This document shows positions 78 through 11,785 of a DNA stretch of 12,379 bases, piece by piece (position 1 is the first letter of the stretch; the number at the start of each line of letters is the position of its first letter). The notes beneath the pieces were generated by a model that saw only the letters and a list, made by a program, of their open reading frames with translations, was not told the origin of the DNA and did not search any database. Position numbers and translations under genes: made by a program. Source of the stretch: Pseudomonadota bacterium. Lineage in GTDB: Bacteria > Bdellovibrionota > Bdellovibrionia > Bdellovibrionales > Bdellovibrionaceae. The stretch covers positions 1 to 12,379 of the forward strand of contig JBEGVH010000004.1 in assembly GCA_041178425.1 (NCBI GenBank). The letters run 5' to 3'.

Positions 78-123
78 TTAGGCTCTTCGGAAGTTTAAAC
101 TTACCTTTCGAGGAGCCTAAATG
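78..123 (+). promoter_or_regulatory. RNA hairpin sequestering the Shine-Dalgarno (and possibly the AUG) of the efflux operon's first gene
   Basis: 78-93 TTAGGCTCTTCGGAAG pairs with 105-120 CTTTCGAGGAGCCTAA: 16 bp, 14 Watson-Crick plus 2 G-U (86/112, 90/108). The SD GAGGAG (110-115) lies in the 3' arm. CAT at 76-78 can also pair with ATG 121-123 with one bulged A. Confidence 0.7.
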
Positions 124-1365
124 TTTGTGCAAAAAACAACCCTCATCGGGTTACTCCTTCTACTACCAAGCTCTGTTCTGGCTCTTTCTCCTATATCTCT
201 CAATGCCTTGATAGAAAGATCCCTTTCAAATCATCCTGAAAGCCGAATGTTTGAACAGCGTCGACACGCTACTTTGTCGATGATGGCCAGTGAAGTTTTT
301 CTTCCAAGCCCCATGATCGCTTACGAAGAGATGACTGGCGCAGGAATGCTGGGCTCGGGTCTTACCGGGATGAAGCAAACGATCTGGGAGTTTCGACAAA
401 AAATCCCCTTTTTTCCTAAAACCTATTTGAGCCGAGAGGTTTTAGAGCAAGAGGCGCAATCGATTGCGGCAGAACTGACGCAGGCCCAGAAAACCAGAAA
501 AGCCAAAATTACAACTGAGTATTTTCGCTGGTTGGCTATAAAGAAAAAGTTGAAAATAAAAAAGGAAGAAGAGCTTCTTTTGGCTCAGCTCATCGCCGTT
601 CAGCAAACTCGTTATCTTTCGCAAAAAGTTTCGCAGGTCGAGTTGGTGGCCCTTCAAATTGAACGTGGAAATCTTCTGACTGAGATCACCGAATTGGAAT
701 CCGAAGAGAAAAAACAACAAATCACCCTAGAAATTCTCGTCGGACCCGGTGAGAGTCTAGGTGGGTTCGAGCCTCAAGATCAAAAATTGATCCTCAAACC
801 ATTTTACGCTGGGGCGCCGGAGAAAGTTGCCGAGAGTCTCAATAAAAATAATTTGGAACTATCGGCCGCGCACGCGATGAATAAGAGAGGCCAAGCTAAT
901 GTTTCACGATCAAAAGCCGCGTGGGTTCCTGACCTTGAGCTGATGGTTTCCAGGCGAGAAGATGATTTGGGTAACAAGCAAGAGGGATGGCAGGTAGCCG
1001 TTGAAATTCCTCTTTGGTTGGCGGGGGAGCCCAGGGCGCGGGTGAGCCAGGCCAGAGCAGAGTCTCAGAATCTCGAAACAGCCTATATGGAAAAAAAGCG
1101 CCAACTGCAGTTAGAAGCCCAGGCGATGGTTGCGGACCAAAAGCAATTGCGAAAGCAACTGGAACTGATGGAAAACGGCCTTGTTCAATGGTCGAACCAG
1201 AACGTTAAATCGGCTCGTATTGCCTATCAAACTGGAAAGTTGGAGTATGCGAGCTTTCTTGCGCTCATGCAGTCGGCTTATCAAACACTCATAAGTTACG
1301 AAGATTTAAAAGTAAAAGTTTTAGACAATCAAGAGCAACTCCAAGTTCTCATGGGAGATACTTAA
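121..1365 (+). CDS. TolC-family outer membrane efflux protein (CusC/CzcC-like OMF)
   Basis: 414 aa; Sec signal peptide (LLLLLPSSVLA); two coiled-coil OEP-like halves with beta-strand motifs (FRQKIPF, VAVEIPLW) and AYQTGKLEYASFL; SD GAGGAG; first gene of an OMF-MFP-RND cluster. Confidence 0.9.
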   Translation: MFVQKTTLIGLLLLLPSSVLALSPISLNALIERSLSNHPESRMFEQRRHATLSMMASEVFLPSPMIAYEEMTGAGMLGSGLTGMKQTIWEFRQKIPFFPKTYLSREVLEQEAQSIAAELTQAQKTRKAKITTEYFRWLAIKKKLKIKKEEELLLAQLIAVQQTRYLSQKVSQVELVALQIERGNLLTEITELESEEKKQQITLEILVGPGESLGGFEPQDQKLILKPFYAGAPEKVAESLNKNNLELSAAHAMNKRGQANVSRSKAAWVPDLELMVSRREDDLGNKQEGWQVAVEIPLWLAGEPRARVSQARAESQNLETAYMEKKRQLQLEAQAMVADQKQLRKQLELMENGLVQWSNQNVKSARIAYQTGKLEYASFLALMQSAYQTLISYEDLKVKVLDNQEQLQVLMGDT

Positions 1366-1366
1366 T

Positions 1367-2482
1367 ATGGCCTCAATCTCATCTCAAAAACCAACAAAAA
1401 TTGTTTTTCTACTCGTTGGAGTTAGTTTGATTTCGGGAACGATTGGTTGGTGGCTGAATAAGCCATCGTCTTCTGTGTCCCCAGAGGCTAGCGTGGCTAA
1501 AAAGGTAGAAGAGAAAAAACCGATTTATCGCTGCCCTATGCATCCACATATAGTTTCTGATCGACCGGGACCTTGCCCGATTTGCCACATGGATCTTCAA
1601 ATTGTTGATGATGAGCCTGAGGGCACAAATTCAAATATAAATGAAGGGCCAGAGGGTCGCGCGGGGGTAAGCCTCACTTTGGAGCGCCAGCAATTGATTG
1701 GAGTCACCTACGGCAAGGCACAAAAAGAAAAACTCACTAAAGAAATAAATGCCACTGGCAAAGTAGCATTTGATCCGGATCTCTACACGGCTATCGAGGA
1801 ATACCGACAGGCTCGTTTGAGCTATTCGCAAATAGAAAAAGACTCTTATGGGTCTCTCAAGGAGCAAGCAGCCACTTTGTTGGAAGCGGCTCGCACTAAG
1901 TTGAAGCTCATGGGCTTTAGTGATGATAAGATCAAGAATATGGCGGATGCCCGTCAGGGTGGTATGGAGTTTCTTCTCCCAGACGGCAAAGCTTGGATTT
2001 ATGCGGAGGTTTTCGAATACGAAACAAGCGGACTGAAAATCGGACAAAAGCTCGAGGCGGTTCTCCCGTCGAGCCCTCAAAATATTTTTGAGGGAATCAT
2101 TTCTTCGATCAGTCCCTCCCTCAATAACCAAAACAGAACGGTCCGAGTGAGGGCGCAGGTTTTAGATCCAAAACGAATGCTTCGCCCCGACAGTTTTATG
2201 AATGTTCGTATATTGATTGATCTAGGGGACCGACTTTCCGTTCCTGATGAAGCCGTGTTGTTTTCTCAGGGAAAAGCTTTTGTGTTCGTCTCTGAGAAAG
2301 AAGGGCAGTTTCAACCGCGAATCATCGAAGTCGGAGAAAAAACCAGCAATCGCTATGAAGTCACAAGTGGTTTGCAAGAGGGTGAGAATATCGTCACGAG
2401 CGCAAACTTTCTTATCGACTCTGAATCTAAGCTGCGATCGGTTTTGGAGAAAGCTCAGCCATCTGGACACGAGGGGCACTGA
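1367..2482 (+). CDS. cusB: Heavy-metal RND periplasmic adaptor (CusB-like MFP) with N-terminal heavy-metal-binding domain
   Basis: N-terminal TM anchor; YRCPMHP...PGPCPICHMDL metal-binding motif; beta-barrel motifs (WIYAEVFEYE, RTVRVRA, LRPDSF); C-terminal GLQEGENIVTSANFLIDSESKL typical of CusB; His tail GHEGH. Starts 1 nt after the OMF stop and overlaps cusA (TGATG). Confidence 0.9.
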   Translation: MASISSQKPTKIVFLLVGVSLISGTIGWWLNKPSSSVSPEASVAKKVEEKKPIYRCPMHPHIVSDRPGPCPICHMDLQIVDDEPEGTNSNINEGPEGRAGVSLTLERQQLIGVTYGKAQKEKLTKEINATGKVAFDPDLYTAIEEYRQARLSYSQIEKDSYGSLKEQAATLLEAARTKLKLMGFSDDKIKNMADARQGGMEFLLPDGKAWIYAEVFEYETSGLKIGQKLEAVLPSSPQNIFEGIISSISPSLNNQNRTVRVRAQVLDPKRMLRPDSFMNVRILIDLGDRLSVPDEAVLFSQGKAFVFVSEKEGQFQPRIIEVGEKTSNRYEVTSGLQEGENIVTSANFLIDSESKLRSVLEKAQPSGHEGH

Positions 2483-5400
2483 TGATTGAAAAAATAATTG
2501 AATTCAGTTGTCGAAATAAATTTTTCGTACTTTTGATGACCTGTGTTGCCCTCGTGGGGGCGATGCAGATTTTAAATCGAATGCCACTCGATGCTATCCC
2601 GGATCTTTCGGATACACAGGTTATTATCTATAGCAAATGGGACCGCTCTCCAGACATCATCGAAGATCAAGTCACATACCCCATTGTAACGGCCCTCTTG
2701 GGTGCGCCAAAAATTAAAACCATTCGTGGTGTCTCCGATTTTGGATACTCTTATGTGTATGTCATTTTCGAAGACGGAACCGATCTTTATTGGGCCCGAT
2801 CTCGAATCGTTGAGTATCTCAACAAAATCAGTTCACAGCTTCCTTCGGGAGTGAAAACAGAAATTGGTCCTGATGCCACCAGCGTTGGATGGGTTTACCA
2901 ATATGCGCTCGTTGATGAAGCGAAGAAGTTAAATCTTTCGGAACTTAGAACATTGCAGGATTGGACTTTGCGATTTCACTTGCAGTCCCTTCCAGGTGTT
3001 TCTGAAGTGGCTTCGATCGGTGGATTTGTAAAGCAGTACCAGGTGAATGTGAACCCCCATCGTCTACAGGGCTATGGCATCTCTTTGGCGCAACTTATTG
3101 AGGCGATCAAAAAAGGCAATCAAGACACTGGCGGTCGTGTGATTGAGATTGCGGGTTCAGAGTACATGGTGCGAGGCCGTGGCTATGCCAAGGGTGTTAA
3201 GGATATCGAAAATATCGTCGTTGCCAATGATCCACAAACTCACGTTCCCATTCTCGTGCGACACCTGGCGCGTGTGCAGTTGGGCCCCGATATGCGGAGA
3301 GGTGTGACCGATTTAGATGGACTCGGCGATGCCGTTGGCGGAATCGTGATTATGAGGCAGGGTGAAAACGCTCTCAATGTGATCGAGAGAGTCAAAGAAA
3401 AGCTAACCGAAATTCAACCGAGCCTTCCTTCGGGAGTAAAGGTTATTCCGGTCTACGATCGCTCCACTCTGATTGAAAGAGCCATCAGTACGCTCAAGAG
3501 CAAGGTAACGACGGAAGTTATTATCGTTAGTTTAGTTATTTTACTTTTCCTTTGGCATATTCCGTCGGCGATCGTTCCGATTCTTACGATTCCTATTTCA
3601 ATCTTTTTGGCGTTTATTCCCATGTACTCTATGGGAGTGACGACGAATATTATGTCCCTCGCAGGCATCGCTATTTCTATTGGTGTTCTTGTGGACGGGG
3701 CCATTGTCGAAGTGGAAAACGCCTATAAAAAATTAGAACTGTGGAATAGCGGGGGGCGCGTTGGTGATTTTCATGAAATTCGAATGAATGCGCTCAAAGA
3801 AGTGGGGCCCAGCGTATTCTTCTCTTTGTTAGTGATCACGGTTTCTTTTCTACCAGTGTTCACTCTTGTGGATCAAGAGGGGCGATTATTTTCGCCACTA
3901 GCGATTTCGAAAACACTCACAATGGCCTTGGCGGCAATATTAGCATTAACTCTCGATCCTGCGTTGAGAATGCTTTTTTCTCGTATGGATGACTATGATT
4001 TCAAGCCTCGTTGGCTTTGTCGCCTAGCCAATCATTTATTGGTTGGAAAGTATTATCCAGAAGAAGAACATCCCGTGAGTCGAACTCTTTACCGGTGGTA
4101 TGAACCGATTTGTAATTGGGTATTAAATAACATAAAGGCCACCATTGCCACCGCCTTGGTGTTAATGGCTTTAACCGTGCCGGTCTTCTTTCAGCTTGGC
4201 TCAGAGTTTATGCCGCCTCTTAATGAGGGAGATTTTCTGTATATGCCGACCGCTTTTCCGGGAATGTCGGTCACAGAGGCGCAGAGAATTGTTCAGCGCC
4301 AAGATGAAATCATTAAAACGTTTGGCGAGGTCAAAAGTGTCTTCGGCAAGGCGGGCAGGGCAGAGACGGCGACCGATCCTGCTCCCTTTTCGATGATGGA
4401 AACCACGGTGATGTTAAAGCCGGTGGAAGAGTGGCCCGCTGTTGATCGATGGTATTCCTTTTTGCCAGAACTTTTGCGCAAGCCCTTTTATTGGATCACT
4501 CCTCCTCATCGCAGCATGGATGAGTTGCGAGAGGCGCTCGATAAAAAGTTAAAGTTTGCCGGCATCCCCAACATTTGGACCATGCCGATTAAAAATCGTA
4601 TTGATATGCTTTCAACAGGAATTCGAACGCCCGTGGGCATCAAAGTAATGGGCCCCGACCTGCAGGTGATTCAAAAAATGAGCGAAGAGATTGAGGCGGT
4701 TGTTCGCGGTGTGAAAGGGACGACCAATGTTTTTGCCGAACGCACAAGCGGTGGTTATTACATCGACTTTCAGCTCAAACGAGAAGAGCTCTCTCGTTAC
4801 GGGATCAGCGTTCAAGATGCGCAAATGATAATTAGTTCTGCCATTGGTGGAGAAGTTGTTTCGAACACCATCGAGGGTCGCAGTCGTTTTGGCATTAGTG
4901 TTCGTTATGCCCGCGAGTTTCGCGAAGATGTGTCGGCCCTGGAGCACGTGATGGTGCCAGCCCCCAATGGAACTGAAATTCCGATGGCCCAGATTGCCGA
5001 CATCAAGTTAGTAGAAGGCCCGGCGATGATTCGAAATGAAAACGGGTTGCTCGCAGGTTTCGTTTACATCGATGTTAAAGATCGCGATATCGGTGGTTAC
5101 GTTGAAGAGGCCAAACAGTTAGTTGAGTCCAAAGTAAAGCCCGCTACCGGCTACAGTCTCATCTGGAGTGGGCAATATGAAAACATGATTCGCGTGAAGG
5201 AGCGATTGAAGGTTGTGGTTCCGATCACGTTGTTGATGATCATGCTGCTCTTGTATCTTAATACTCAGTCGTGGGTAAAAACAGCGATTGTTATGTTGGC
5301 GGTGCCATTCTCACTCATTGGAGCGTTCTGGATTCTCTGGCTACTCGGTTACAATATGTCGATTGCGGTTTGGGTGGGAATGATTGCCTTGATGGGCCTT

Positions 5401-5748
5401 GATGCCGAAACGGGAGTTTTTATGTTGATGTATCTCGATCATGCCTTTGATGATCAGGTCAAAGCAAATCGAATGCACACAATCGAAGACTTACGCGAGG
5501 CTGTTATTCATGGGGCCGTAAAACGCATACGCCCCAAAATGATGACAGTGATGGCGGCATTTATGGGTCTCACTCCAATCATGTTTTCGATGGGGACTGG
5601 CAGCGATGTCATGAAGCGAATCGCCGCACCAATGGTGGGTGGGTTAATTTCGAGTTTTGCACTTGAGCTTGTTGTGTATCCAGCCATTTTCTTCGTTTGG
5701 AAGAAGCGAGAATTGGAGAAGGCAACACTTCGCCTCAATGAGGGATAG
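2482..5748 (+). CDS. cusA: CusA/SilA-type Cu(I)/Ag(I) efflux RND permease
   Basis: 1088 aa; DAIPDLSDTQVII and GPDATSVGWVYQY motifs. The Met triad equivalent to E. coli CusA M573/M623/M672 is present (FLYM588P, APFSM638ME, RIDM709LSTG). Proton-relay equivalents are VDGAIV (D405), DAETG (E939) and RIRPKMMT (K984). Confidence 0.96.
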   Translation: MIEKIIEFSCRNKFFVLLMTCVALVGAMQILNRMPLDAIPDLSDTQVIIYSKWDRSPDIIEDQVTYPIVTALLGAPKIKTIRGVSDFGYSYVYVIFEDGTDLYWARSRIVEYLNKISSQLPSGVKTEIGPDATSVGWVYQYALVDEAKKLNLSELRTLQDWTLRFHLQSLPGVSEVASIGGFVKQYQVNVNPHRLQGYGISLAQLIEAIKKGNQDTGGRVIEIAGSEYMVRGRGYAKGVKDIENIVVANDPQTHVPILVRHLARVQLGPDMRRGVTDLDGLGDAVGGIVIMRQGENALNVIERVKEKLTEIQPSLPSGVKVIPVYDRSTLIERAISTLKSKVTTEVIIVSLVILLFLWHIPSAIVPILTIPISIFLAFIPMYSMGVTTNIMSLAGIAISIGVLVDGAIVEVENAYKKLELWNSGGRVGDFHEIRMNALKEVGPSVFFSLLVITVSFLPVFTLVDQEGRLFSPLAISKTLTMALAAILALTLDPALRMLFSRMDDYDFKPRWLCRLANHLLVGKYYPEEEHPVSRTLYRWYEPICNWVLNNIKATIATALVLMALTVPVFFQLGSEFMPPLNEGDFLYMPTAFPGMSVTEAQRIVQRQDEIIKTFGEVKSVFGKAGRAETATDPAPFSMMETTVMLKPVEEWPAVDRWYSFLPELLRKPFYWITPPHRSMDELREALDKKLKFAGIPNIWTMPIKNRIDMLSTGIRTPVGIKVMGPDLQVIQKMSEEIEAVVRGVKGTTNVFAERTSGGYYIDFQLKREELSRYGISVQDAQMIISSAIGGEVVSNTIEGRSRFGISVRYAREFREDVSALEHVMVPAPNGTEIPMAQIADIKLVEGPAMIRNENGLLAGFVYIDVKDRDIGGYVEEAKQLVESKVKPATGYSLIWSGQYENMIRVKERLKVVVPITLLMIMLLLYLNTQSWVKTAIVMLAVPFSLIGAFWILWLLGYNMSIAVWVGMIALMGLDAETGVFMLMYLDHAFDDQVKANRMHTIEDLREAVIHGAVKRIRPKMMTVMAAFMGLTPIMFSMGTGSDVMKRIAAPMVGGLISSFALELVVYPAIFFVWKKRELEKATLRLNEG

Positions 5749-5858
5749 TAACGAAATACTAAACTATTTGCATTGCGATTGATTAACCTTGTTTGGAAAG
5801 CTTAAACTTGAAAAGAGAGATTGGTTTTCCTGATAGATCTAGGCGAAAGGCAAGTGAT

Positions 5859-6962
5859 ATGTTGAGCTCTAATATCAAATTCAAGTTTCTTATTTGTCTG
5901 GTTATTTTGGTTCAATTTATTGTTTTGAGAGAAGTTCAGGCGTGCACAAACGACTCGTATGGCCTTAACAATAGCACCACTCAAGATATTGACGAGTGTG
6001 GAATCTGCGCTCGTGTCACGAACTCTATAGGCTCAAAAATCTTTATTCCTACCAAAACCGAAGCTGAGTGGCGGGCTTTTCTAACGAATAAACCGGCGGG
6101 TGTCACGCTCGGGTGTTGTCGATCATCGCAAACCTTTACCACATCGGGCTCACAAACCTGGACCCCTCCATCAAAATATTTTCCCTCGGGTTACTCTTAC
6201 TGCACAACGGTGAGTGTGGTGGCCGTGGGCGGTGGTGGCGGTGGTTTCGCTTACTCCAGCTATGCTCGCGGTGGCGGTGGCGGTGGCCTGGGTTGGAAAA
6301 ACAACATATCAGTCACCCCGGGAAGCTCCTATACTGTTGTCGTTGGGGCTGGCGGGGCCAGGGGCGCCTGGGGTTCTAACGCGAGCGCCGGTGGAAATAG
6401 CTACTTCATAAATACCTCCACTGTCTATGGGGGCGGTGGCGGTGGTGGTACCTATAATACCACGCCAGGCGCTGGGGGTAGTTATGCCGGTGATGGGGGC
6501 GGCTCCGGGGGATCCGGGGGCTATGGATATGTATATGCTGGTGGTGGTGGCGGTGCAGGTGGGTATGCCGGTAATGGTGGCGCTGGTTATGTGGCGTCTA
6601 GTACGTCCTATTATGGATCAGGAAATGCCGGTAGTGGTGGCGGTGGTGGCGGTGGTGGCTCTGGTGGATCTGGGGCTGTTGCCGGCGGCGGCGGTGGCGT
6701 CGGACTTAATGGCCAAGGTGCAAATGGAACAGCAGGTGCTGGTAGTACGGGCCATGGTGCTGGCGGTGGCGCGGGTTCAAGTGGAACAGCGGGAGCAGGA
6801 GGTTCTTTAAACTACTCTAATGGCGGTAGTTACGGCGGCGGCGGTGGCGGCTCCGATTACACGGGATCGCCGTACTATCACGGTAATGGTGCTCCTGGAG
6901 CTGTTCGAATCATGTGGGGCGTTGGCCGGAGCTTTCCATCAACCGATGCAGCGGCACCTTAA
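5859..6962 (+). CDS. Secreted glycine-rich protein: Cys-rich N-domain plus phage-type glycine-rich (polyglycine II-like) domain; putative adhesin
   Basis: ATG 5859 has an AAAGG SD 8 nt upstream and begins a signal-peptide-like segment (KFKFLICLVILVQFIVLREVQA|C), so it is preferred over the TTG at 5793. The N-domain is IDECGICARVTN...FIPTKTEAEWRAFL...P.GVTLGCC. It is followed by TFTTSGSQTWTPP...VVAVGGGGGG...ISVTPGSSYTVVVGAGG...GAVRIMWG..RSFPST, the frame of glycine-rich domains seen in phage virion/tail proteins. Confidence 0.8.
   Translation: MLSSNIKFKFLICLVILVQFIVLREVQACTNDSYGLNNSTTQDIDECGICARVTNSIGSKIFIPTKTEAEWRAFLTNKPAGVTLGCCRSSQTFTTSGSQTWTPPSKYFPSGYSYCTTVSVVAVGGGGGGFAYSSYARGGGGGGLGWKNNISVTPGSSYTVVVGAGGARGAWGSNASAGGNSYFINTSTVYGGGGGGGTYNTTPGAGGSYAGDGGGSGGSGGYGYVYAGGGGGAGGYAGNGGAGYVASSTSYYGSGNAGSGGGGGGGGSGGSGAVAGGGGGVGLNGQGANGTAGAGSTGHGAGGGAGSSGTAGAGGSLNYSNGGSYGGGGGGSDYTGSPYYHGNGAPGAVRIMWGVGRSFPSTDAAAP
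6228..6851 (+). repeat. Low-complexity GGY codon runs (poly-Gly) inside the glycine-rich CDS
   Basis: Multiple GGCGGTGGTGGCGGTGG-type runs (e.g. 6228-6245, 6270-6287, 6432-6449, 6541-6554, 6636-6659) encoding Gly5-Gly8 tracts; locally high GC. Confidence 0.75.
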
Positions 6963-6989
6963 AAGGCAAAGAATTAGCAGGTTCAGAGC

Positions 6990-9482
6990 CTAAAAGGGAT
7001 AGTTGGAAGGATTGTAGCAGCTCCAGCTAGCTTGGTTAGCTACAGAATGACACCAACCACCGGTGGCCTTATTGGCACAGGTGACTTGGACACTGGTGCT
7101 GATGATAAAATTGCATTCGGAATAGTTAGCATTGGGCCATCCAGTCGGTTGGTTACATGACCAGCCATCAATTCCCGGAATAGTGTAGCACCACTTACCA
7201 TCCGAGACACGAATGCACCCTTGAATAACGTAAGTGCTGCCGAGAGCTCCTGAACACTTGATATTTGCAGAAGCAGCAGTGGTTTGTACGGAGCCATCAG
7301 GAAATTTAATGCCACCCGAGGTGCTCTCAATAACACCGGCAACGGTAAGTGAAGAAGATGGCGTTGTCGTTCCAATCCCAACATTTCCGTTTGGATAATT
7401 AATTGAAGCACTCTGGCCTGCGACCCACTGTGGTGTATAACCAGATTTATCCCCAGGTGAGCTCGTGACTAAGCAGATTAAAGGTTTGGAAATCCCGCAT
7501 CCAAACCCGCCCGCGGCCCAGCGACTCGGGCCAGTAGTTGCTACTCCCCATACCCCCATGTAGGTACCAGTCTCTCCAATAGTCCAACCGTTGCAATCGC
7601 TACTGTTCGCTGGCGCTGTGTTATCAGTTCTGGCTGAGGTGTTTGGCCAATAAGTACTTGGGCCTGGGACGCCACTAGGATAGCCACCACGACCACTCCA
7701 ATAACTTGGAGATGATGTTGAACTAGAAAGGTAATCGGGGCCACCCCAATCGTTATTATCGTTGGGCCCGAGGCCCCCTGAGTCTGCCAAAAAACTGGCT
7801 CCACCGGTCTTCGTATCTCCGGATACTGCAAAGAAGTAACGAGTGTTTGGACTAGCATTATTGCAATTGGCATTATCACAAAGCCAGGCTTTAACTGTAG
7901 ATGAGGTTAGATTGGCATTGTTTTTCCCGAGCCAATTATTGGCCTTTAAGTCTTCGAGACAAAAAGAATCTGCTCCAGAAAGGCCCCCCATATTTCCCTT
8001 GGTAGTAGCCTTTGTAAGAACGAAGTAATTTCCATTGCCCGAACTCTTTGGCTCAATAGGCATGCCATTGATAGAGATGGATGAAGCATTGATTGCACCA
8101 TTAACATCAAGTTGATAACTAGGGGTAATTGTCCCAATCCCCACTTTACCAGCCGAGGTAATTGTCAGCCGCTCTTGTCGCGAATTGGCGTTGGTGGGTG
8201 ATGTTGAAAATGATATGCGCTGAGGGGCATTGCCAACCGATACGCTGCCATCAACTCTAAAATCAATGAGGGCTGTTCCTTGGGTGTTTGCTCCGTCAAA
8301 GATAGCGCCAAGAAAGCTGAGGACCTGATCGTTCTCATCGGGTACCTCGGGTATTGCAAGCGTTCCGCGAGCACGAACCCCTTTAAATACGGGGCGGTCC
8401 CCAATCAAGTTGGAAGCGGCGACCAAGGATAGACCTGGAGCTGTGTCTTGATAGGAAAGTATAAGTTTATCCGTTGTTAAAAGATGAGAGTCTACCGTAT
8501 TACCATCCGATAAATGTAAAGTTCCGGCAGGAGCTGTCGTCCCCAAGCCAACACTGCCCGTTGAATACGAAATATTGTTGCCATTGGTGGTCCATGGTGA
8601 GCTGCTGTTATTCGAGTTTTCCGCAGCTGTCACGTTGGACCAAAACATTCCCCCGGTGCCATCGCTCGTGAGCACTTGCCCGTTGGAGCCTTTGCTGGTG
8701 GGTAGGGATAGAGAGTAGCTGGTAAAGGTGGTCGAAGGTGCGATGAGAGTCACTTGTGGCTGCAGGCCGGTGCTTCCGCCAATGGTCACCGAGTTTCCAC
8801 TGACGGAGGAAGAAGCCTTTGCGTATTTTGAGGATGTGCCGTTGATGAGATCGAGGAACGCAGTAAAGTTATCGAGGTTCATGGCGTAGTTACTACTTCC
8901 CAAATTCGCAGCTCCCACGGAGTTATCCACACGTAAGACTTGTTGGCTTGGAATTCCTGCAACAGACATGGTGTCCATCGAAGAAGGTGTTTGGGTAATT
9001 TCAATTCCTGGTAGTGTTTGCACCCCAGAGCCATCATTGAAAGAAACATTTAGGTACAAGCTATCGCCAGCTTGTTTAACGTAACCACCAGAGCATTGGG
9101 TGAGGTGCGGGTAAATTAAATTAGTACTAAATATTCTATCGAGGGCCGTCGAACTCGCATCCGTTCGAACTCCTCTGCCAATGATCACATTAAATACACC
9201 CTTCGTCGCCGAGAGATCCACCGTGTGTCGTTCTGAGTACATCACACAGGTGCTCGCTCCACTCTGAGGCCCAGTGATTTGTAAATTCAGTTCAACAGCC
9301 GATGCCGTGACCGGCGTGCCATCCGGATTAAGAATGCGACCTTGATACGTGAAACCAGCGTTTGCAGCAAAAGATTTGAGATTGAAGCCTAATACTGAAA
9401 AAAGAATGAAAAACCAAAAACACAGAGTTTTTAGCGATCCCTTGAAATTGTTTTTAAGGGCGAACAAGGCACTTATAATCAT
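6990..9482 (-). CDS. Secreted mosaic phage-tail-fibre-like adhesin (Bdellovibrio MAT / 'cell wall surface anchor' type)
   Basis: 830 aa; signal peptide ending SFA|A. The N-domain FTYQGRILNPDGTP...CVMYSERHTVDLSATKGVFNVIIGRG resembles the conserved N-terminus of Bdellovibrio fibre proteins. Fibre motifs: LPTSKGSNGQVLTSDGTGGMFW, three G[SKN]VG[LI]GT..P repeats (~8540-8560, 8121-8150, 7359-7388), RARGT...ERLTI and GGIKFPDGSVQTTA. Internal GNMGGLSGADSFC (DUF1554-like) module; Cys-rich C-terminus; no S74 chaperone seen. Confidence 0.82.
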   Translation of the reverse strand: MIISALFALKNNFKGSLKTLCFWFFILFSVLGFNLKSFAANAGFTYQGRILNPDGTPVTASAVELNLQITGPQSGASTCVMYSERHTVDLSATKGVFNVIIGRGVRTDASSTALDRIFSTNLIYPHLTQCSGGYVKQAGDSLYLNVSFNDGSGVQTLPGIEITQTPSSMDTMSVAGIPSQQVLRVDNSVGAANLGSSNYAMNLDNFTAFLDLINGTSSKYAKASSSVSGNSVTIGGSTGLQPQVTLIAPSTTFTSYSLSLPTSKGSNGQVLTSDGTGGMFWSNVTAAENSNNSSSPWTTNGNNISYSTGSVGLGTTAPAGTLHLSDGNTVDSHLLTTDKLILSYQDTAPGLSLVAASNLIGDRPVFKGVRARGTLAIPEVPDENDQVLSFLGAIFDGANTQGTALIDFRVDGSVSVGNAPQRISFSTSPTNANSRQERLTITSAGKVGIGTITPSYQLDVNGAINASSISINGMPIEPKSSGNGNYFVLTKATTKGNMGGLSGADSFCLEDLKANNWLGKNNANLTSSTVKAWLCDNANCNNASPNTRYFFAVSGDTKTGGASFLADSGGLGPNDNNDWGGPDYLSSSTSSPSYWSGRGGYPSGVPGPSTYWPNTSARTDNTAPANSSDCNGWTIGETGTYMGVWGVATTGPSRWAAGGFGCGISKPLICLVTSSPGDKSGYTPQWVAGQSASINYPNGNVGIGTTTPSSSLTVAGVIESTSGGIKFPDGSVQTTAASANIKCSGALGSTYVIQGCIRVSDGKWCYTIPGIDGWSCNQPTGWPNANYSECNFIISTSVQVTCANKATGGWCHSVANQASWSCYNPSNYPF
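6996..7256 (-). repeat. Protein-level tandem repeat (2 x ~40 aa, Cys/Trp-rich) at the fibre C-terminus
   Basis: aa 743-783 CSGALGSTYVIQGCIRVSDGKWCYTIPGIDGWSCNQPTGWP and aa 790-829 CNFIISTSVQVTCANKATGGWCHSVANQASWSCYNPSNYP share C-x11/12-C-x5-G-x-W-C-x8-W-S-C-x2-P-x2-[WY]-P. Confidence 0.8.
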
Positions 9483-9490
9483 TCAATTAT

Positions 9491-9518
9491 TTATCGGAAC
9501 AAGTGGTGTTGTTGTGTA
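9491..9518 (-). promoter_or_regulatory. Putative sigma28 (FliA)-type promoter of the fibre gene, probably leaderless
   Basis: The minus strand reads TACA-N16-TCCGATAA (consensus TAAA-N15-GCCGATAA). The -10 box ends 8 nt before the ATG at 9482 and there is no SD. The -35 match is weak. Confidence 0.55.
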
Positions 9519-9544
9519 GGTTCTTAAATGAAAATGGAAAAGTT

Positions 9545-9557
9545 TCTCATTTTGAGA
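9545..9557. promoter_or_regulatory. Palindrome TCTCA-N3-TGAGA, candidate transcription-factor site
   Basis: TCTCATTTTGAGA lies about 27 bp upstream of the putative sigma28 -35 element of the fibre gene. Confidence 0.4.
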
Positions 9558-9648
9558 GATCACCCCTGGACCCAAACAAGAGAGGTTGTTTTAACTATAG
9601 CTCAATTTGGTACAGGACCCTGATTGGACTTTAAAGTAAATTGAATGA

Positions 9649-9696
9649 CCGCGGCGCTACCGCTACCTATCATGATAAACAGCGGTAGTAACACGG
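9649..9696 (-). other. Long strand-specific RNA hairpin (possible sRNA, leader or stabilising element)
   Basis: Minus-strand RNA CCGUG-UUA-CUACCGCU-GUU-UAU-CAUG-AUA-GGU-AGCGGUAG-CGC-CGCGG gives a 14-bp inner stem with 3 G-U pairs and a 5-bp outer stem with 1 G-U. The wobbles become A-C mismatches on the + strand. Confidence 0.5.
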
Positions 9697-9764
9697 ATTA
9701 TAATAAGAATAAAAGTGAACAAAATCATTTGTATCGTCGAAATTCAAAAAGCTCCTCGAGTCGC

Positions 9765-10640
9765 TTATCTAAACCTATTCTTGTATTGGCATTTCTGACA
9801 AAGAGGTTCGATCGCCTTGTTTTTGGAAAAGCCTTCGAGAATCGATTTCGCTCGGGGGGAATTCAAGATTTCGGAGAGATGAGTCTCAAAGGCCGAACCC
9901 AAATTGATCACGGCCTCTTTATCGAGACAGCAGGGAACCACTGTTCCTTCGGTGAGAATTGCTAATTGATTTTTGAGGCCATAGCAAAAGCCGTCGCTCA
10001 CGGATGAAACCGAATTAAGACTGGGCCATTCAAATTGGGTGTCAAAATGAAGCTTAATATGCCGATCGAGTCGGTAAGACTTTTTCTCTCGCACCTCGAT
10101 ATGCGCGGGCAGCTCGGGCTCAATAAAGAGTGTCCTTAGCTCATCGTAAATGCGGTCATGACGTTCTTGAAGCAATTGATCTTTTGCGGGCAAATCCCAG
10201 AGGCGAAAATTAACAAAAGATTCCGGAGATCTCGATACAAAATCTTTGGCAAACTGGCTGAGTTTTTCAAGATAGGGGCGAATCTCTTTGTCGGGAAAGT
10301 TATCAAAAAAACTATGAACGCTAAAGTTTACTTGTTTGATTGTGGGGGCGTTCAATAGCAATTCACGGTGCCGATCTAATAATAACCCATTGCTGGTTAA
10401 AATCAGAGGAACATTTTCTTCTTCTAGGATTCGCAAGAACTCAGGGAAGCTTGGATGAGCGAGTGGCTCTCCCATCACGTGCAGTGTGACGGCCTTGGCG
10501 ACAGGTTTCACTTCTCGAATCACGCGTTTAAAATGTTGGGGTGACATCATTTTTTTCGGGCGCAAGACCTCGGGGCAAAAGCTACATTGCAAATTACAGA
10601 TATTACTGATTTCTATATAAACTCGATCGAAGCGACTCAT
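9765..10640 (-). CDS. Radical SAM protein with C-terminal SPASM/Twitch-type auxiliary Fe-S domain, function unknown
   Basis: YIEISNICNLQCSFC (CX3CX2C), HVMGEPLAHP, LTSNG, NFSVHS; C-terminal GFCYGL...GTVVPCC...LGS...LCQKC. The start overlaps the methyltransferase stop (ATGA, 10637-10640). Confidence 0.9.
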   Translation of the reverse strand: MSRFDRVYIEISNICNLQCSFCPEVLRPKKMMSPQHFKRVIREVKPVAKAVTLHVMGEPLAHPSFPEFLRILEEENVPLILTSNGLLLDRHRELLLNAPTIKQVNFSVHSFFDNFPDKEIRPYLEKLSQFAKDFVSRSPESFVNFRLWDLPAKDQLLQERHDRIYDELRTLFIEPELPAHIEVREKKSYRLDRHIKLHFDTQFEWPSLNSVSSVSDGFCYGLKNQLAILTEGTVVPCCLDKEAVINLGSAFETHLSEILNSPRAKSILEGFSKNKAIEPLCQKCQYKNRFR

Positions 10641-11785
10641 TTTTTCTTTAACACCGCAAGTATTTCAATGTGAGGAGTATGGGGGAATTGATCCAGACCC
10701 TGTACTTCAGTAATCACATAACCTCTCTTCTTTAGTCGTCCGGCATCGTGAATAAAAGTATCGAGACTACACGAAACATAGATAATTTCACGCGGAAATC
10801 CAAATTGTCCAACAAACATGTCTATTTTGCTAAAACCATCGCGAGGTGGATCCAAAAATAAATAATCAGGGAATGGGCACTCCGCTTTTAAAAGCTTCCA
10901 GTCGCTTGGTTTAAAAAGATTGGCCTCAACAACCGTGCATGGGCCGCCGAGATCGCGGGAGCGCAGTTTCTTGAGCCCTTCGCTGGCAATATCTACCGCA
11001 ACAAAATTCTGAAGCCCCTGAGCCGCAATCACTTCGGTGAAGTTTCCAGAACCGCAGCAGAGCTCGATGGCGCTTCCCTGGGCCCAGTGATGAGTTTTCT
11101 CACGAACCCATGCCTTCATCCGGTGATTTTGCTGAGAGTTGCCTTGGCGAAAGGGACGACGCTTGTTAGGAACGACATCCTCCAACTTGGTTTCATCATC
11201 GAGATCAACATATGACCAGTGATGGGGCGGGGTGGGGCGCCAGGGGTCTTGAGGCATGGTTCTTAGGACTTGGCTTAGAAGATCTCGCAAGGGTTTGTTG
11301 AGAATCAGGCAATCATTGATGGGCGCAATCACCTGACTGAAGCGGCTAACAAAACCCAGAATGTCGCCGTCGGTTTTAAATTGTGCTCGATTTCGAAATC
11401 CAAAGACAGACTCACTTTCCCAAACGGGGGGGATATCATCATTCTCGGGCCATAGCCGATCCCGGTGAAGTGCATGAGTTAGCATATGACGTTTGTAGGA
11501 GAGCTGTTTCTGGTAACTTAGGCCCATCCAGGGGCAACCGCCACAGAGTCCTTCTTTGATGCCGGCATGGGCGCAGGGTGGGGTGATGCGCTCAGGGGAT
11601 TCTTCGATCATTTTTACAAGGCGGGCATATCCATATCGCTCTTTGAGATGAACCACTTCAAAAAGGCCAAGATCACCGGGAAAAGTGCCTAGCACAAAAA
11701 ACACTAAGTTATCGGGATGATCGACAACACCGTAACCTTCAACAGATATATCTCGGACTCGGCCTTGAAATTGGTTTCCTATCAT
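10637..11785 (-). CDS. rlmD: RlmD/RumA-family (TrmA superfamily) SAM-dependent m5U RNA methyltransferase, compact form
   Basis: TRAM-like N-terminus; Fe-S cysteines CAHAGIKEGLCGGC and INDCLIL; FRNRAQF; FRQGN; ELCCGSGNF (SAM binding); LDPPRDG; catalytic YVSC; DQFPHTPHIE. The exact RNA target cannot be determined from sequence. Confidence 0.85.
   Translation of the reverse strand: MIGNQFQGRVRDISVEGYGVVDHPDNLVFFVLGTFPGDLGLFEVVHLKERYGYARLVKMIEESPERITPPCAHAGIKEGLCGGCPWMGLSYQKQLSYKRHMLTHALHRDRLWPENDDIPPVWESESVFGFRNRAQFKTDGDILGFVSRFSQVIAPINDCLILNKPLRDLLSQVLRTMPQDPWRPTPPHHWSYVDLDDETKLEDVVPNKRRPFRQGNSQQNHRMKAWVREKTHHWAQGSAIELCCGSGNFTEVIAAQGLQNFVAVDIASEGLKKLRSRDLGGPCTVVEANLFKPSDWKLLKAECPFPDYLFLDPPRDGFSKIDMFVGQFGFPREIIYVSCSLDTFIHDAGRLKKRGYVITEVQGLDQFPHTPHIEILAVLKKK

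Follow-up and report, generated by a model that had tools for sequence, protein, structure and literature searches.

The question raised by this locus is whether a small, secreted, glycine-rich protein acts as a separately encoded head for a fibre and, if so, on which fibre it would sit. The locus lies in a window of 12,379 base pairs (bp), which is the complete contig C4 of a 43-contig, 3.06-Mb genome of the Bdellovibrionaceae (G000, the source genome below), with no wider context. Two genes of the window, a head-adhesin gene and a fibre gene of the MAT family of mosaic trimeric fibres, run towards each other, and both begin with a hydrophobic, signal-peptide-like segment as judged by reading the sequence. 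The first-pass annotation had likened this pair to the fibre and tip of the T-even phage S16, whose long tail fibre gp37 is reportedly capped by the adhesin gp38 (a result said to be that of Dunne et al. in 2018), and had proposed that the glycine-rich protein is an exchangeable tip adhesin for this or another fibre. In the reading developed here, the gene at 5859-6962 encodes a secreted, detachable adhesin head, separately encoded and swappable, which would dock through its N-terminal domain (ND) on fibre ends cut by the Peptidase_S74 (S74) chaperone; the probability assigned to this reading is roughly one half.

The proposed mechanism has three steps. S74-terminated fibres would cut off their intramolecular chaperone at the conserved Ser of an SDxxxK motif. 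Three C-terminal tails would then remain, each with an aromatic end of roughly A-x-[FY]-x-[YH]-[ST], and one ND would bind the three tails via the F, P, K, T, E and F residues of the motif FxPTKTxxEWxxF. The fibre would thereby gain a separately encoded, swappable head. The glycine-rich protein of the window would be one of 12 such plug-in heads in the source genome, with its TNF-like/glycine-rich domain binding the target. The parts of this protein and its gene are as follows.

5859-6962, plus strand: head-adhesin gene, 367 amino acids (aa) from the ATG at 5859, taken from the open reading frame (ORF); an upstream TTG at 5793 would give 389 aa
5859-5942, plus strand: signal peptide, residues 1-28, MLSSNIKFKFLICLVILVQFIVLREVQA followed by CTND (sequence reading; putative cleavage site)
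5952-6149, plus strand: ND, an N-terminal module of about 65 aa, residues ~32-97, the proposed docking cap (12 paralogues in the genome)
6117-6959, plus strand: TNF-like plus glycine-rich (TG) head, residues 87-367, the likely ligand-binding part (structure alignment)

The ND contains two conserved Cys residues and the motif F-[IV]-P-T-K-T-x-x-E-W-x-x-F, and at the near-invariant C, N, F, P, T, E, W, F and C positions the window ND agrees with the consensus. The window protein scores 105.8 bits (E 2.8e-30) against a 12-sequence ND profile that includes the window protein itself. No Pfam, NCBIfam or PHROG model covers residues ~32-97. Folded alone, the ND is predicted as four to five strands and one helix, with a predicted local distance difference test score (pLDDT) of 84.7, and this fold has no convincing relative in the PDB, the best VIA-align match among 48,161 chains reaching Z 3.1 and the best Foldseek match E 0.6. 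The ESM Atlas likewise returned no usable feature match for the ND, its structure rows lying at TM 0.40-0.47. Phages yielded no ND at the sensitivity of tblastn when 50,697 phage records were searched with an ND-only protein of 112 aa, and the ND-only member of a 92-member ND alignment matched no PHROG. The few PHROG matches among these 92 members, at most four members per family, seemingly derive from other domains, which was checked for the window ND only.

A profile search of the source genome identified 12 ORFs that carry the ND, each directly behind a signal peptide. Seven of the paralogues bear a Fibrinogen_C head alone, two combine Gly_rich_2 with Fibrinogen_C, two bear Gly_rich_2 alone (the window gene and C6:123387), and one bears another domain. 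The two combined proteins (616-629 aa), encoded on the minus strand at C16:123084-124934 and C14:125266-127155, run from ND through Gly_rich_2 to a fibrinogen-like domain, so that one cap is followed by two lectin-type heads of different kinds in tandem. The idea that the ND marks a lipoprotein signal was rejected because a Cys directly follows the signal peptide in only two of the 12 paralogues.

Beyond this genome, the 12-sequence profile was searched against 1.84 billion representative proteins and matched 2,196 clusters at E<=1e-3, of which 698 reached E<=1e-10. Among the best 150 clusters, the ND starts within the first 66 residues in 149, and the proteins range from 88 to 936 aa. Their other domains belong to 40 Pfam families with no more than 11 members each, including Fibrinogen_C (11), Gly_rich_2 (9), COLFI (8), Laminin_G_3 (5), Lcl_C (5), RCC1-type repeats (4) and Fib_succ_major (3), together with Kelch and one Pfam GP38 domain. 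The latter occurs in P0121 (389 aa), the best match to the ND profile in the whole library (E 3.3e-34), which carries two tandem ND copies and a glycine-rich domain matching Pfam GP38 at 41.3 bits. At the other extreme, P0132, P0144, P0187 and P0232 (88-112 aa) consist of a signal peptide, the ND and a short tail, and could be bare caps without a head. Horizontal shuffling is evident from such mosaic architectures. The small Cys- and Trp-containing N-domain and the following run of Gly residues, which the first-pass annotation had picked out from the sequence alone, thus correspond to a defined module and a Pfam domain (Gly_rich_2), and its suggestion that this N-domain would be found fused to variable C-terminal domains holds both in the source genome and across the wider family.

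The head of the window protein can be assigned to a known fold. Pfam Gly_rich_2 (PF21722) covers residues 94-298 with a score of 38.3 bits (cut-off 24.3), and phrog_4474 matches the protein at E 4e-48. The AlphaFold2 model of the 367-aa protein, built on a 141-row alignment, has a mean pLDDT of 90.7 and a predicted TM score (pTM) of 0.87; its signal-peptide region forms a helix at residues 8-22 with low pLDDT. With VIA-align, residues 87-367 of this model superpose on the Pam3 fibre (7ypx_A) with Z 18.8 and a root-mean-square deviation of 2.9 Å over 188 residues at 34% identity, and Foldseek finds the same chain at E 2.8e-7. The tail-tip chain 9d93_Qb of mycobacteriophage Bxb1 follows at Z 14.5, and the TNF-like/glycine-rich domains of ALK and LTK at Z 7.2-8.6 over approximately 130 residues. 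Judged from the model, the glycine-rich C-terminal part belongs to the TNF-like/polyglycine domains, which in some phage tail fibres make up the receptor-binding tip, and the window head would bind a prey-surface ligand. Pfam GP38 (PF05268) does not match the window protein at E<=0.01, and the S16 gp38 structure 6F45 is absent among the structural matches listed by Foldseek and VIA-align for the window head. A genome search with PF21722 returned four other loci and missed the window gene itself; it was not used for counting.

The arrangement of the ND genes in other genomes links the module to S74 fibres. Within the same class, the ND occurs in 57 of 301 genomes, and the source genome has the highest copy number (12). 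The neighbourhoods of all ND matches at E<=1e-10 outside the source genome comprise 77 loci with 87 ND genes; 15 weaker matches (E 1e-10 to 1e-5) were left out of this set. By a local MAT_N profile, a MAT gene lies within 500 bp of 21 ND genes and within 1.5 kb of 28, and 26 of these 28 stand behind the fibre gene on the same strand. Further cases come from loci in which a contig end or the beginning of a record truncates the fibre gene. By a local S74 profile, an S74-bearing ORF stands directly upstream on the same strand of 27 of the 87 ND genes (25 of the 77 class loci), with frame gaps of -79 to +136 nt, so that the two reading frames overlap or nearly abut. Furthermore, Pfam Peptidase_S74 is present in all 15 upstream fibres tested outside the source genome. 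The class loci are partly orthologous within two genera and their rows are not independent, yet distinct locus types occur in several genera and three families.

A second scan covered all species, with one genome per species (GTDB set), and relied on two ND peptide patterns only; the patterns came from a three-sequence alignment of ND-only proteins, which biases the sample to close variants. It returned 27 loci, of which 24 were counted (ND E<=1e-8); L112, with no ORF under translation table 11, and L127 and L128, with ND E values of about 1e-5, were dropped. L117 was kept among the 24, although its neighbours are unreadable under table 11; we take its record to belong to a group that recodes UGA. 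At 14 of the 24 loci, S74 is present in the same-strand ORF that immediately precedes the ND gene. These comprise eight Patescibacteria-type records, two named Bdellovibrio bacteriovorus strains, and four metagenome-assembled genomes, namely those of a Hyphomicrobium, an alphaproteobacterium and an unclassified bacterium and one labelled Methanosarcinales. In the case of Hyphomicrobium (L102), the fibre is 1,993 aa long and the ND protein is 43% identical to P0121. The upstream genes of the remaining loci are unrelated (a major facilitator superfamily transporter, DnaB, a TPR-peptidase and others) or unreadable. In the all-species pairs, the S74 fibre and the ND protein each possess their own signal peptide, and the two are therefore separate secreted proteins. 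Since genomes hold from a few to about 30 S74 genes, an S74 gene as the immediate upstream neighbour should be rare by chance; the permutation test covered the source genome only. The linkage of the N-domain to fibre genes on which the first-pass annotation had staked its proposal is thus found at both scales, in the specific form of an ND gene directly behind an S74 fibre.

The ND proteins that follow S74 fibres carry two Fibrinogen_C domains, Gly_rich_2, FGE-sulfatase-type, TSP1, CARDB, and LVIVD and other beta-propellers, and the others have small Cys-rich tails or no known domain. Three of these loci resemble the window protein: at L055, L064 and L069, proteins of 349-351 aa with ND and Gly_rich_2 stand directly after S74 MATs of 1,386-1,818 aa. 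The L055 protein (351 aa) has the architecture of the window protein, with 31% identity over 177 residues and Gly_rich_2 at 25.4 bits, while Gly_rich_2 in L069 reaches 20.3 bits, below the cut-off.

Several loci show further arrangements. In L107-L126, of Patescibacteria type, S74 fibres of about 200-640 aa precede ND proteins with Cys-rich tails, CARDB, TSP1 or beta-propellers; these fibres and ND proteins may be host-attachment proteins of episymbionts. In L025 (1465-11565), from the complete 3.73-Mb related genome G013, the sole ND gene of that genome has a MAT gene on either side and an alpha-amylase gene as a further neighbour, and the second MAT bears S74 and a non-aromatic stump, LKGTLTQA/SD (the slash marks the cleavage site here and below), with no ND gene after it. 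In L026 (G017:C28, 5538-10073), a flagellin gene on the opposite strand is situated between the MAT and ND genes, which are 1.25 kb apart.

The structural basis of the proposed docking was modelled with the G013 operon pair, not with the window proteins. Three copies of fibre residues 640-821, cut before the catalytic S822, were co-folded with ND residues 30-100 of the partner, using alignments of 29 and 100 rows. The interface score ipSAE was 0.83, 0.84 and 0.83, and the best of three controls, two with an unrelated protein as partner and one with the fibre replaced, gave 0.00. In calibration, 116 of 157 solved complexes attained the mark, as did 2 of 215 mismatched pairs; with custom alignments and one chain present in triplicate, these counts apply only approximately here. 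The three runs share at least 84% of their contacts, and the pLDDT of the partner is at least 83. In the predicted interface, the last fibre residues 814-821 (KATAYLYT) of all three chains face ND residues 37-41 and 66-89. The model supports a geometry in which one ND would cap a trimeric S74-cut fibre end.

Both sides of this predicted interface show conservation. The S74 fibres that are followed by an ND gene end in GNVGIGT..P...L.V.G.V.A..[FY].[YH][ST]/SDxxxK, and S822, D823 and K827 are invariant in the alignment of S74 fibre ends. An aromatic residue at both -4 and -2 before the cleavage Ser is present in 37 of 37 ND-followed S74 fibres compared with 6 of 14 S74 fibres of the same loci that have no ND gene behind them, in a comparison whose rows are not independent and whose loci were chosen around ND genes. 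On the side of the ND, the predicted interface positions are more conserved than the rest, with a mean entropy of 1.69 versus 2.15 bits over 100 members, although this test is weak (one-sided Mann-Whitney p 0.03). The conserved interface positions include F69, P71, T74, E77, F81, P86 and V89 in P0270 numbering, and the window ND keeps the consensus at F, P, K, T, A, E, F, P and V of the predicted docking surface.

The same contact at the cleavage-site residues could be read in another way, namely that the ND is a maturation or protection factor that aids the release of the S74 chaperone or shields the cut end, the C-terminal domains being secondary. The order of the genes is that of a phage fibre followed by tfa, as exemplified by Pam3 gp25 and phage Mu Tfa in the portions of PMC9608196 drawn on here, and ND-only proteins do occur. 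The window protein, moreover, is matched by phrog_863, named 'tail fiber assembly' (E 6.4e-12). This match covers window residues 74-282 and profile positions 383-597 of 690, and a chaperone role based on the name was set aside because the match falls in the glycine-rich head, not in the ND or a chaperone domain. S74 is already a self-sufficient chaperone according to the consulted text of PMC10769870, most S74 fibres have no ND gene, and the great variety of lectin-like heads fits target recognition better than assembly. A role in maturation is thus regarded as highly improbable.

The fibre beside the head gene does not belong to the S74 type. Its gene, its parts and the spacer that separates it from the head gene are given below.

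6963-6989, no strand: spacer of 27 bp between the facing stop codons (ORF list)
6990-9482, minus strand: MAT-family fibre gene, 830 aa, non-S74 (NS74) subgroup (NF053851, PDB sequence matches, Pfam)
8967-9395, minus strand: MAT_N, the conserved beta-rich N-terminal domain, residues 30-172 (NCBIfam NF053851)
8076-8399, minus strand: shaft segment, residues 362-469 (8oml_A E 6.5e-8, 8on4_A E 3.8e-4, phrog_9942 E 6.3e-10)
7413-8048, minus strand: globular insertion, residues ~479-690 (no Pfam match)
7233-7391, minus strand: collar motif NGNVGIGTTTPSSSLTVAGVIESTSGGIKFPDGSVQTTAAS, residues 698-750 (8ond_A (bd2133) E 1.4e-11)
6993-7259, minus strand: Cys-rich C-terminal tip, residues ~742-830, about 88 residues with 10 Cys (from sequence; approximate boundary)

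The NCBIfam model NF053851 (Bdello_MAT_N) scores 94.5 bits on the fibre (cut-off 60) and has 11 matches in the genome, this one included; phage tail-fibre PHROGs match the fibre as well. Together with the matches to 8ond, 8oml and 8on4, this bears out the earlier description of the long gene as a mosaic fibre; the likeness of its shaft and collar to the solved MAT structures rests on sequence, and a trimeric state is assumed from the family. Peptidase_S74 (PF13884) is absent from the fibre in Pfam, and none of the 11 S74 matches of the genome lies on contig C4, hence the assignment to the NS74 subgroup. By its sequence, the gene at 6990-9482 encodes a typical MAT fibre of the non-S74 subgroup as defined in the text of PMC10769870. 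The collar NGNVGIGTTTP...L.V.G is of the type that precedes the cleavage site in S74 fibres; in the window fibre, it continues into the covalent tip. This tip is unique in the genome, where the tblastn matches of residues 685-830 to other sites are confined to short stretches of collar, and tblastn of the globular insertion returns only itself, with no paralogue.

With the two genes only 27 bp apart, the convergent genes could be a cognate pair, with the glycine-rich protein docking on the adjacent fibre. Adjacency to MAT genes does recur in the source genome, which has 11 MAT_N and 11 Peptidase_S74 matches. Four of the 12 ND genes (three of 10 independent loci) lie less than 1.3 kb from a MAT gene, at 28, 277, 289 and 1,235 bp. 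Three of the 10 loci are within 300 bp, a number that random placement equalled or exceeded in a fraction of 8.5e-5 of 200,000 trials; in the source genome, the adjacency noted at first pass is therefore beyond chance. Moreover, two of the three adjoining loci involve MATs without S74, namely the window fibre and C26:7924-9750. Against such a pairing, convergent genes are not co-transcribed, and all tested fibres that are encoded immediately before an ND gene outside the source genome belong to the S74 type. The window fibre lacks S74 and its collar leads into a Cys-rich tip on the same chain, so that it has no new C-terminus and cannot offer a cut end. A cognate pair is accordingly hardly to be expected, and the earlier idea of an exchangeable tip adhesin retains support at the level of the family but loses it for docking on the adjacent fibre. 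Because there is no cut end and transcription is convergent, the adjacency more likely reflects the clustering of recognition genes, and the window fibre probably belongs with the head to a cluster of genes for prey or surface recognition rather than serving as its dock.

In the preferred reading, that of a detachable head on S74-cut fibres, docking on another fibre is favoured for these same reasons, and the likely dock of the window head is an S74-type fibre elsewhere in the genome. We infer from the fibre ends that the best candidate would be C9:36678-45920, a 3,080-aa S74 MAT with the stump VAFLYS/SD; C22:46394-49729, with a partial stump, is also a candidate. Elsewhere on contig C9, at 255858-261789, three tandem overlapping S74 ORFs of 617-683 aa without a MAT_N match and with non-aromatic stumps appear to form a separate family of short S74 fibres.

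A number of observations weigh against a detachable head. In the source genome, the ND family is dispersed, with six of 10 loci at least 6 kb from a MAT gene or on MAT-free contigs, and no aromatic-stump fibre stands immediately before any of its 12 ND genes. The window genes converge rather than forming an operon, the fibre is without S74 and ends in a tip of its own, and the upstream neighbour of the window ND gene is cusA rather than an S74 fibre. The canonical stump is present in only one of the 10 readable S74 ORFs of the genome, the C9 candidate, which is not followed by an ND gene. At C21:3114-11489, two S74 MATs enclose an ND-fibrinogen gene (C21:7599-8657), all on one strand, and both fibres end in CT/SD or CTSS/SD without an aromatic stump. 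Outside the source genome, an upstream S74 gene is missing at 52 of the 77 class loci and at 10 of the 24 all-species loci, several of which sit at contig ends; the four further genomes of the source genome's genus have S74 genes and no ND; G036 carries an ND gene and no MAT_N match; and G013 has 21 MAT_N genes for its one ND gene, which means that S74 fibres do not need the ND. The complex model, finally, is a prediction for the pair of another genome, its cut at residue 821 presupposes cleavage, and the conservation test at the interface is weak.

Part of this evidence suits a different explanation, in which the ND proteins are free-standing secreted lectins, the ND is an anchoring, oligomerising or export module, and adjacency to fibres reflects co-regulation in prey-recognition clusters. 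The dispersal of the ND genes and the class loci without an upstream S74 gene fit it, as do the mixed orientations beside MAT genes in the source genome, where the window pair is convergent, the C26 pair divergent and the ND gene of C21 lies between two fibre genes, all on one strand. The bare ND proteins of 88-112 aa point the same way, and fibrinogen-like and TNF-like heads often oligomerise alone. However, the abutting or overlapping same-strand order of S74 fibre and then ND recurs in distant phyla, which is unusual for mere co-regulation, and the aromatic stump is common to all 37 ND-followed fibres. Simultaneously, the complex model scores 0.83 versus 0.00 for the controls, and the most conserved ND residues fall in the predicted interface. 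Free-standing lectins are therefore judged unlikely. An extension of the preferred reading, held more tentatively and at somewhat less than even odds, is that the ND is a universal adaptor for S74-generated tails, through which cellular fibres of predators, Patescibacteria and some Proteobacteria would be armed with interchangeable lectin heads.

Among known systems, a close parallel in principle is S16 gp37/gp38. In both cases, a trimeric fibre would bear one separately encoded cap, whose small N-terminal domain attaches it to the fibre and whose glycine-rich domain, with variable loops, binds the receptor. The ND relatives elsewhere also share the arrangement of a fibre gene followed by an adhesin gene, the window pair being convergent. 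The G013 model predicts the same 3:1 geometry, and the ND member P0121 reaches Pfam GP38. There are nevertheless clear differences: the ND fold has no PDB match, the window protein stays below Pfam GP38, and the ND system is cellular, with Sec-type signal peptides and with no ND in PHROGs or the 50,697 phage records. In addition, the proposed dock of the ND is a new C-terminus generated by S74 self-cleavage, and to our knowledge gp37 has no S74-made C-terminus. The initial analogy with gp37/gp38 finds support in the 3:1 capping predicted for the G013 pair; the window head itself is nearest to Pam3 gp24.

Phage receptor-binding proteins in general combine a conserved N-terminal anchor with swappable C-terminal binding domains, and the ND proteins resemble them in joining a conserved docking module to highly variable heads; the ND anchor, however, is proposed to read a protease-made fibre C-terminus instead of a baseplate or adaptor. 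The extracellular TG domain of ALK and LTK shares the supradomain fold of the window head (Z 7.2-8.6), but belongs to animal receptor kinases that bind cytokines, with no shared context. In cyanophage Pam3, gp24 (PDB 7ypx, 7yfw) possesses the same TNF-like plus glycine-rich fold as the window head. As set out in the sections of PMC9608196 used here, this region of gp24 is the proposed host-recognising tip, with stacked glycine-rich motifs and variable distal ends, and resembles S16 gp38; gp24 docks on the baseplate via an N-terminal helical bundle and needs the separate chaperone gp25. The window protein differs in having the ND in place of the helical bundle and in not being part of a virion.

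The MAT family itself is described by Caulton et al. (2024, PMC10769870), in whose consulted text it is divided into an S74 group, for example Bd3182, and an NS74 group, for example Bd2133, Bd2439, Bd2734 and Bd2740; its hallmark is a signal peptide followed by a conserved beta-rich N-terminal domain of about 130 aa. The covalent tips of the NS74 group (TNF-like, C-type lectin and beta-sandwich) in that text are of the same classes as the heads of the ND proteins. For the S74 MATs, the same source proposes ligand binding through a beta-helix cleft exposed by proteolysis. Its main text, as far as consulted, contains no separately encoded tip and makes no mention of glycine-rich or fibrinogen-like proteins or of genes adjoining the fibres, and the words 'glycine', 'fibrinogen', 'neighbour' and 'accessory' occur there 0 times. 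MAT fibres, the S74 chaperone, the Gly_rich_2/Pam3 tip and the gp37/gp38 principle are thus already known. Among open-licence papers and preprints, no description of the ND or of a separately encoded head for S74 fibres was found, and it is plausible that the ND module and a cellular, S74-dependent analogue of the phage fibre-plus-adhesin system are new.

The genes that flank the pair are the following.

121-5748, plus strand: efflux operon of CusC/CusB/CusA type, left flank (Pfam)
9765-10640, minus strand: radical-SAM/SPASM gene, right flank (Pfam)
10637-11785, minus strand: U5-type RNA methyltransferase gene, right flank (Pfam)

These flanks confirm the layout given at first pass, of convergent signal-peptide genes 27 bp apart between a metal-efflux operon and other genes, including its coordinates. 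The CusB-like membrane-fusion protein (1367-2482, plus strand) has an N-terminal heavy-metal-binding HMBD motif (PF19335, 41.7 bits), and the radical-SAM/SPASM and U5-type methyltransferase genes (9765-11785, minus strand) overlap by 4 nt, which suggests one operon. The window also encodes a small ORF with a secreted or lipoprotein-like product. A consensus scan found no terminator-like hairpin in the 27-bp spacer at 6963-6989, and promoter and terminator counts across 5700-9800 were at the level of shuffled sequence. The sequencing runs found for 5700-9600 numbered 11, all of them DNA metagenomes and one perhaps the origin of this DNA, with no RNA run listed.

If the reading of a detachable head is true, it would add a second, modular layer of prey or host recognition and would explain why a conserved cleavage-site stump is kept on otherwise mosaic fibres. 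The model predicts that binding depends on S74 cleavage and on a handful of named residues per side. Meanwhile, the ND defines a large protein module of about 2,200 clusters that has no model in the libraries searched, and the detachable head would link predators and Patescibacteria episymbionts in their attachment. If, further, the ND were a universal adaptor, recognition would become combinatorial, on the principle of 'one fibre, many heads', and the source genome, with 12 heads, would hold the largest repertoire seen.

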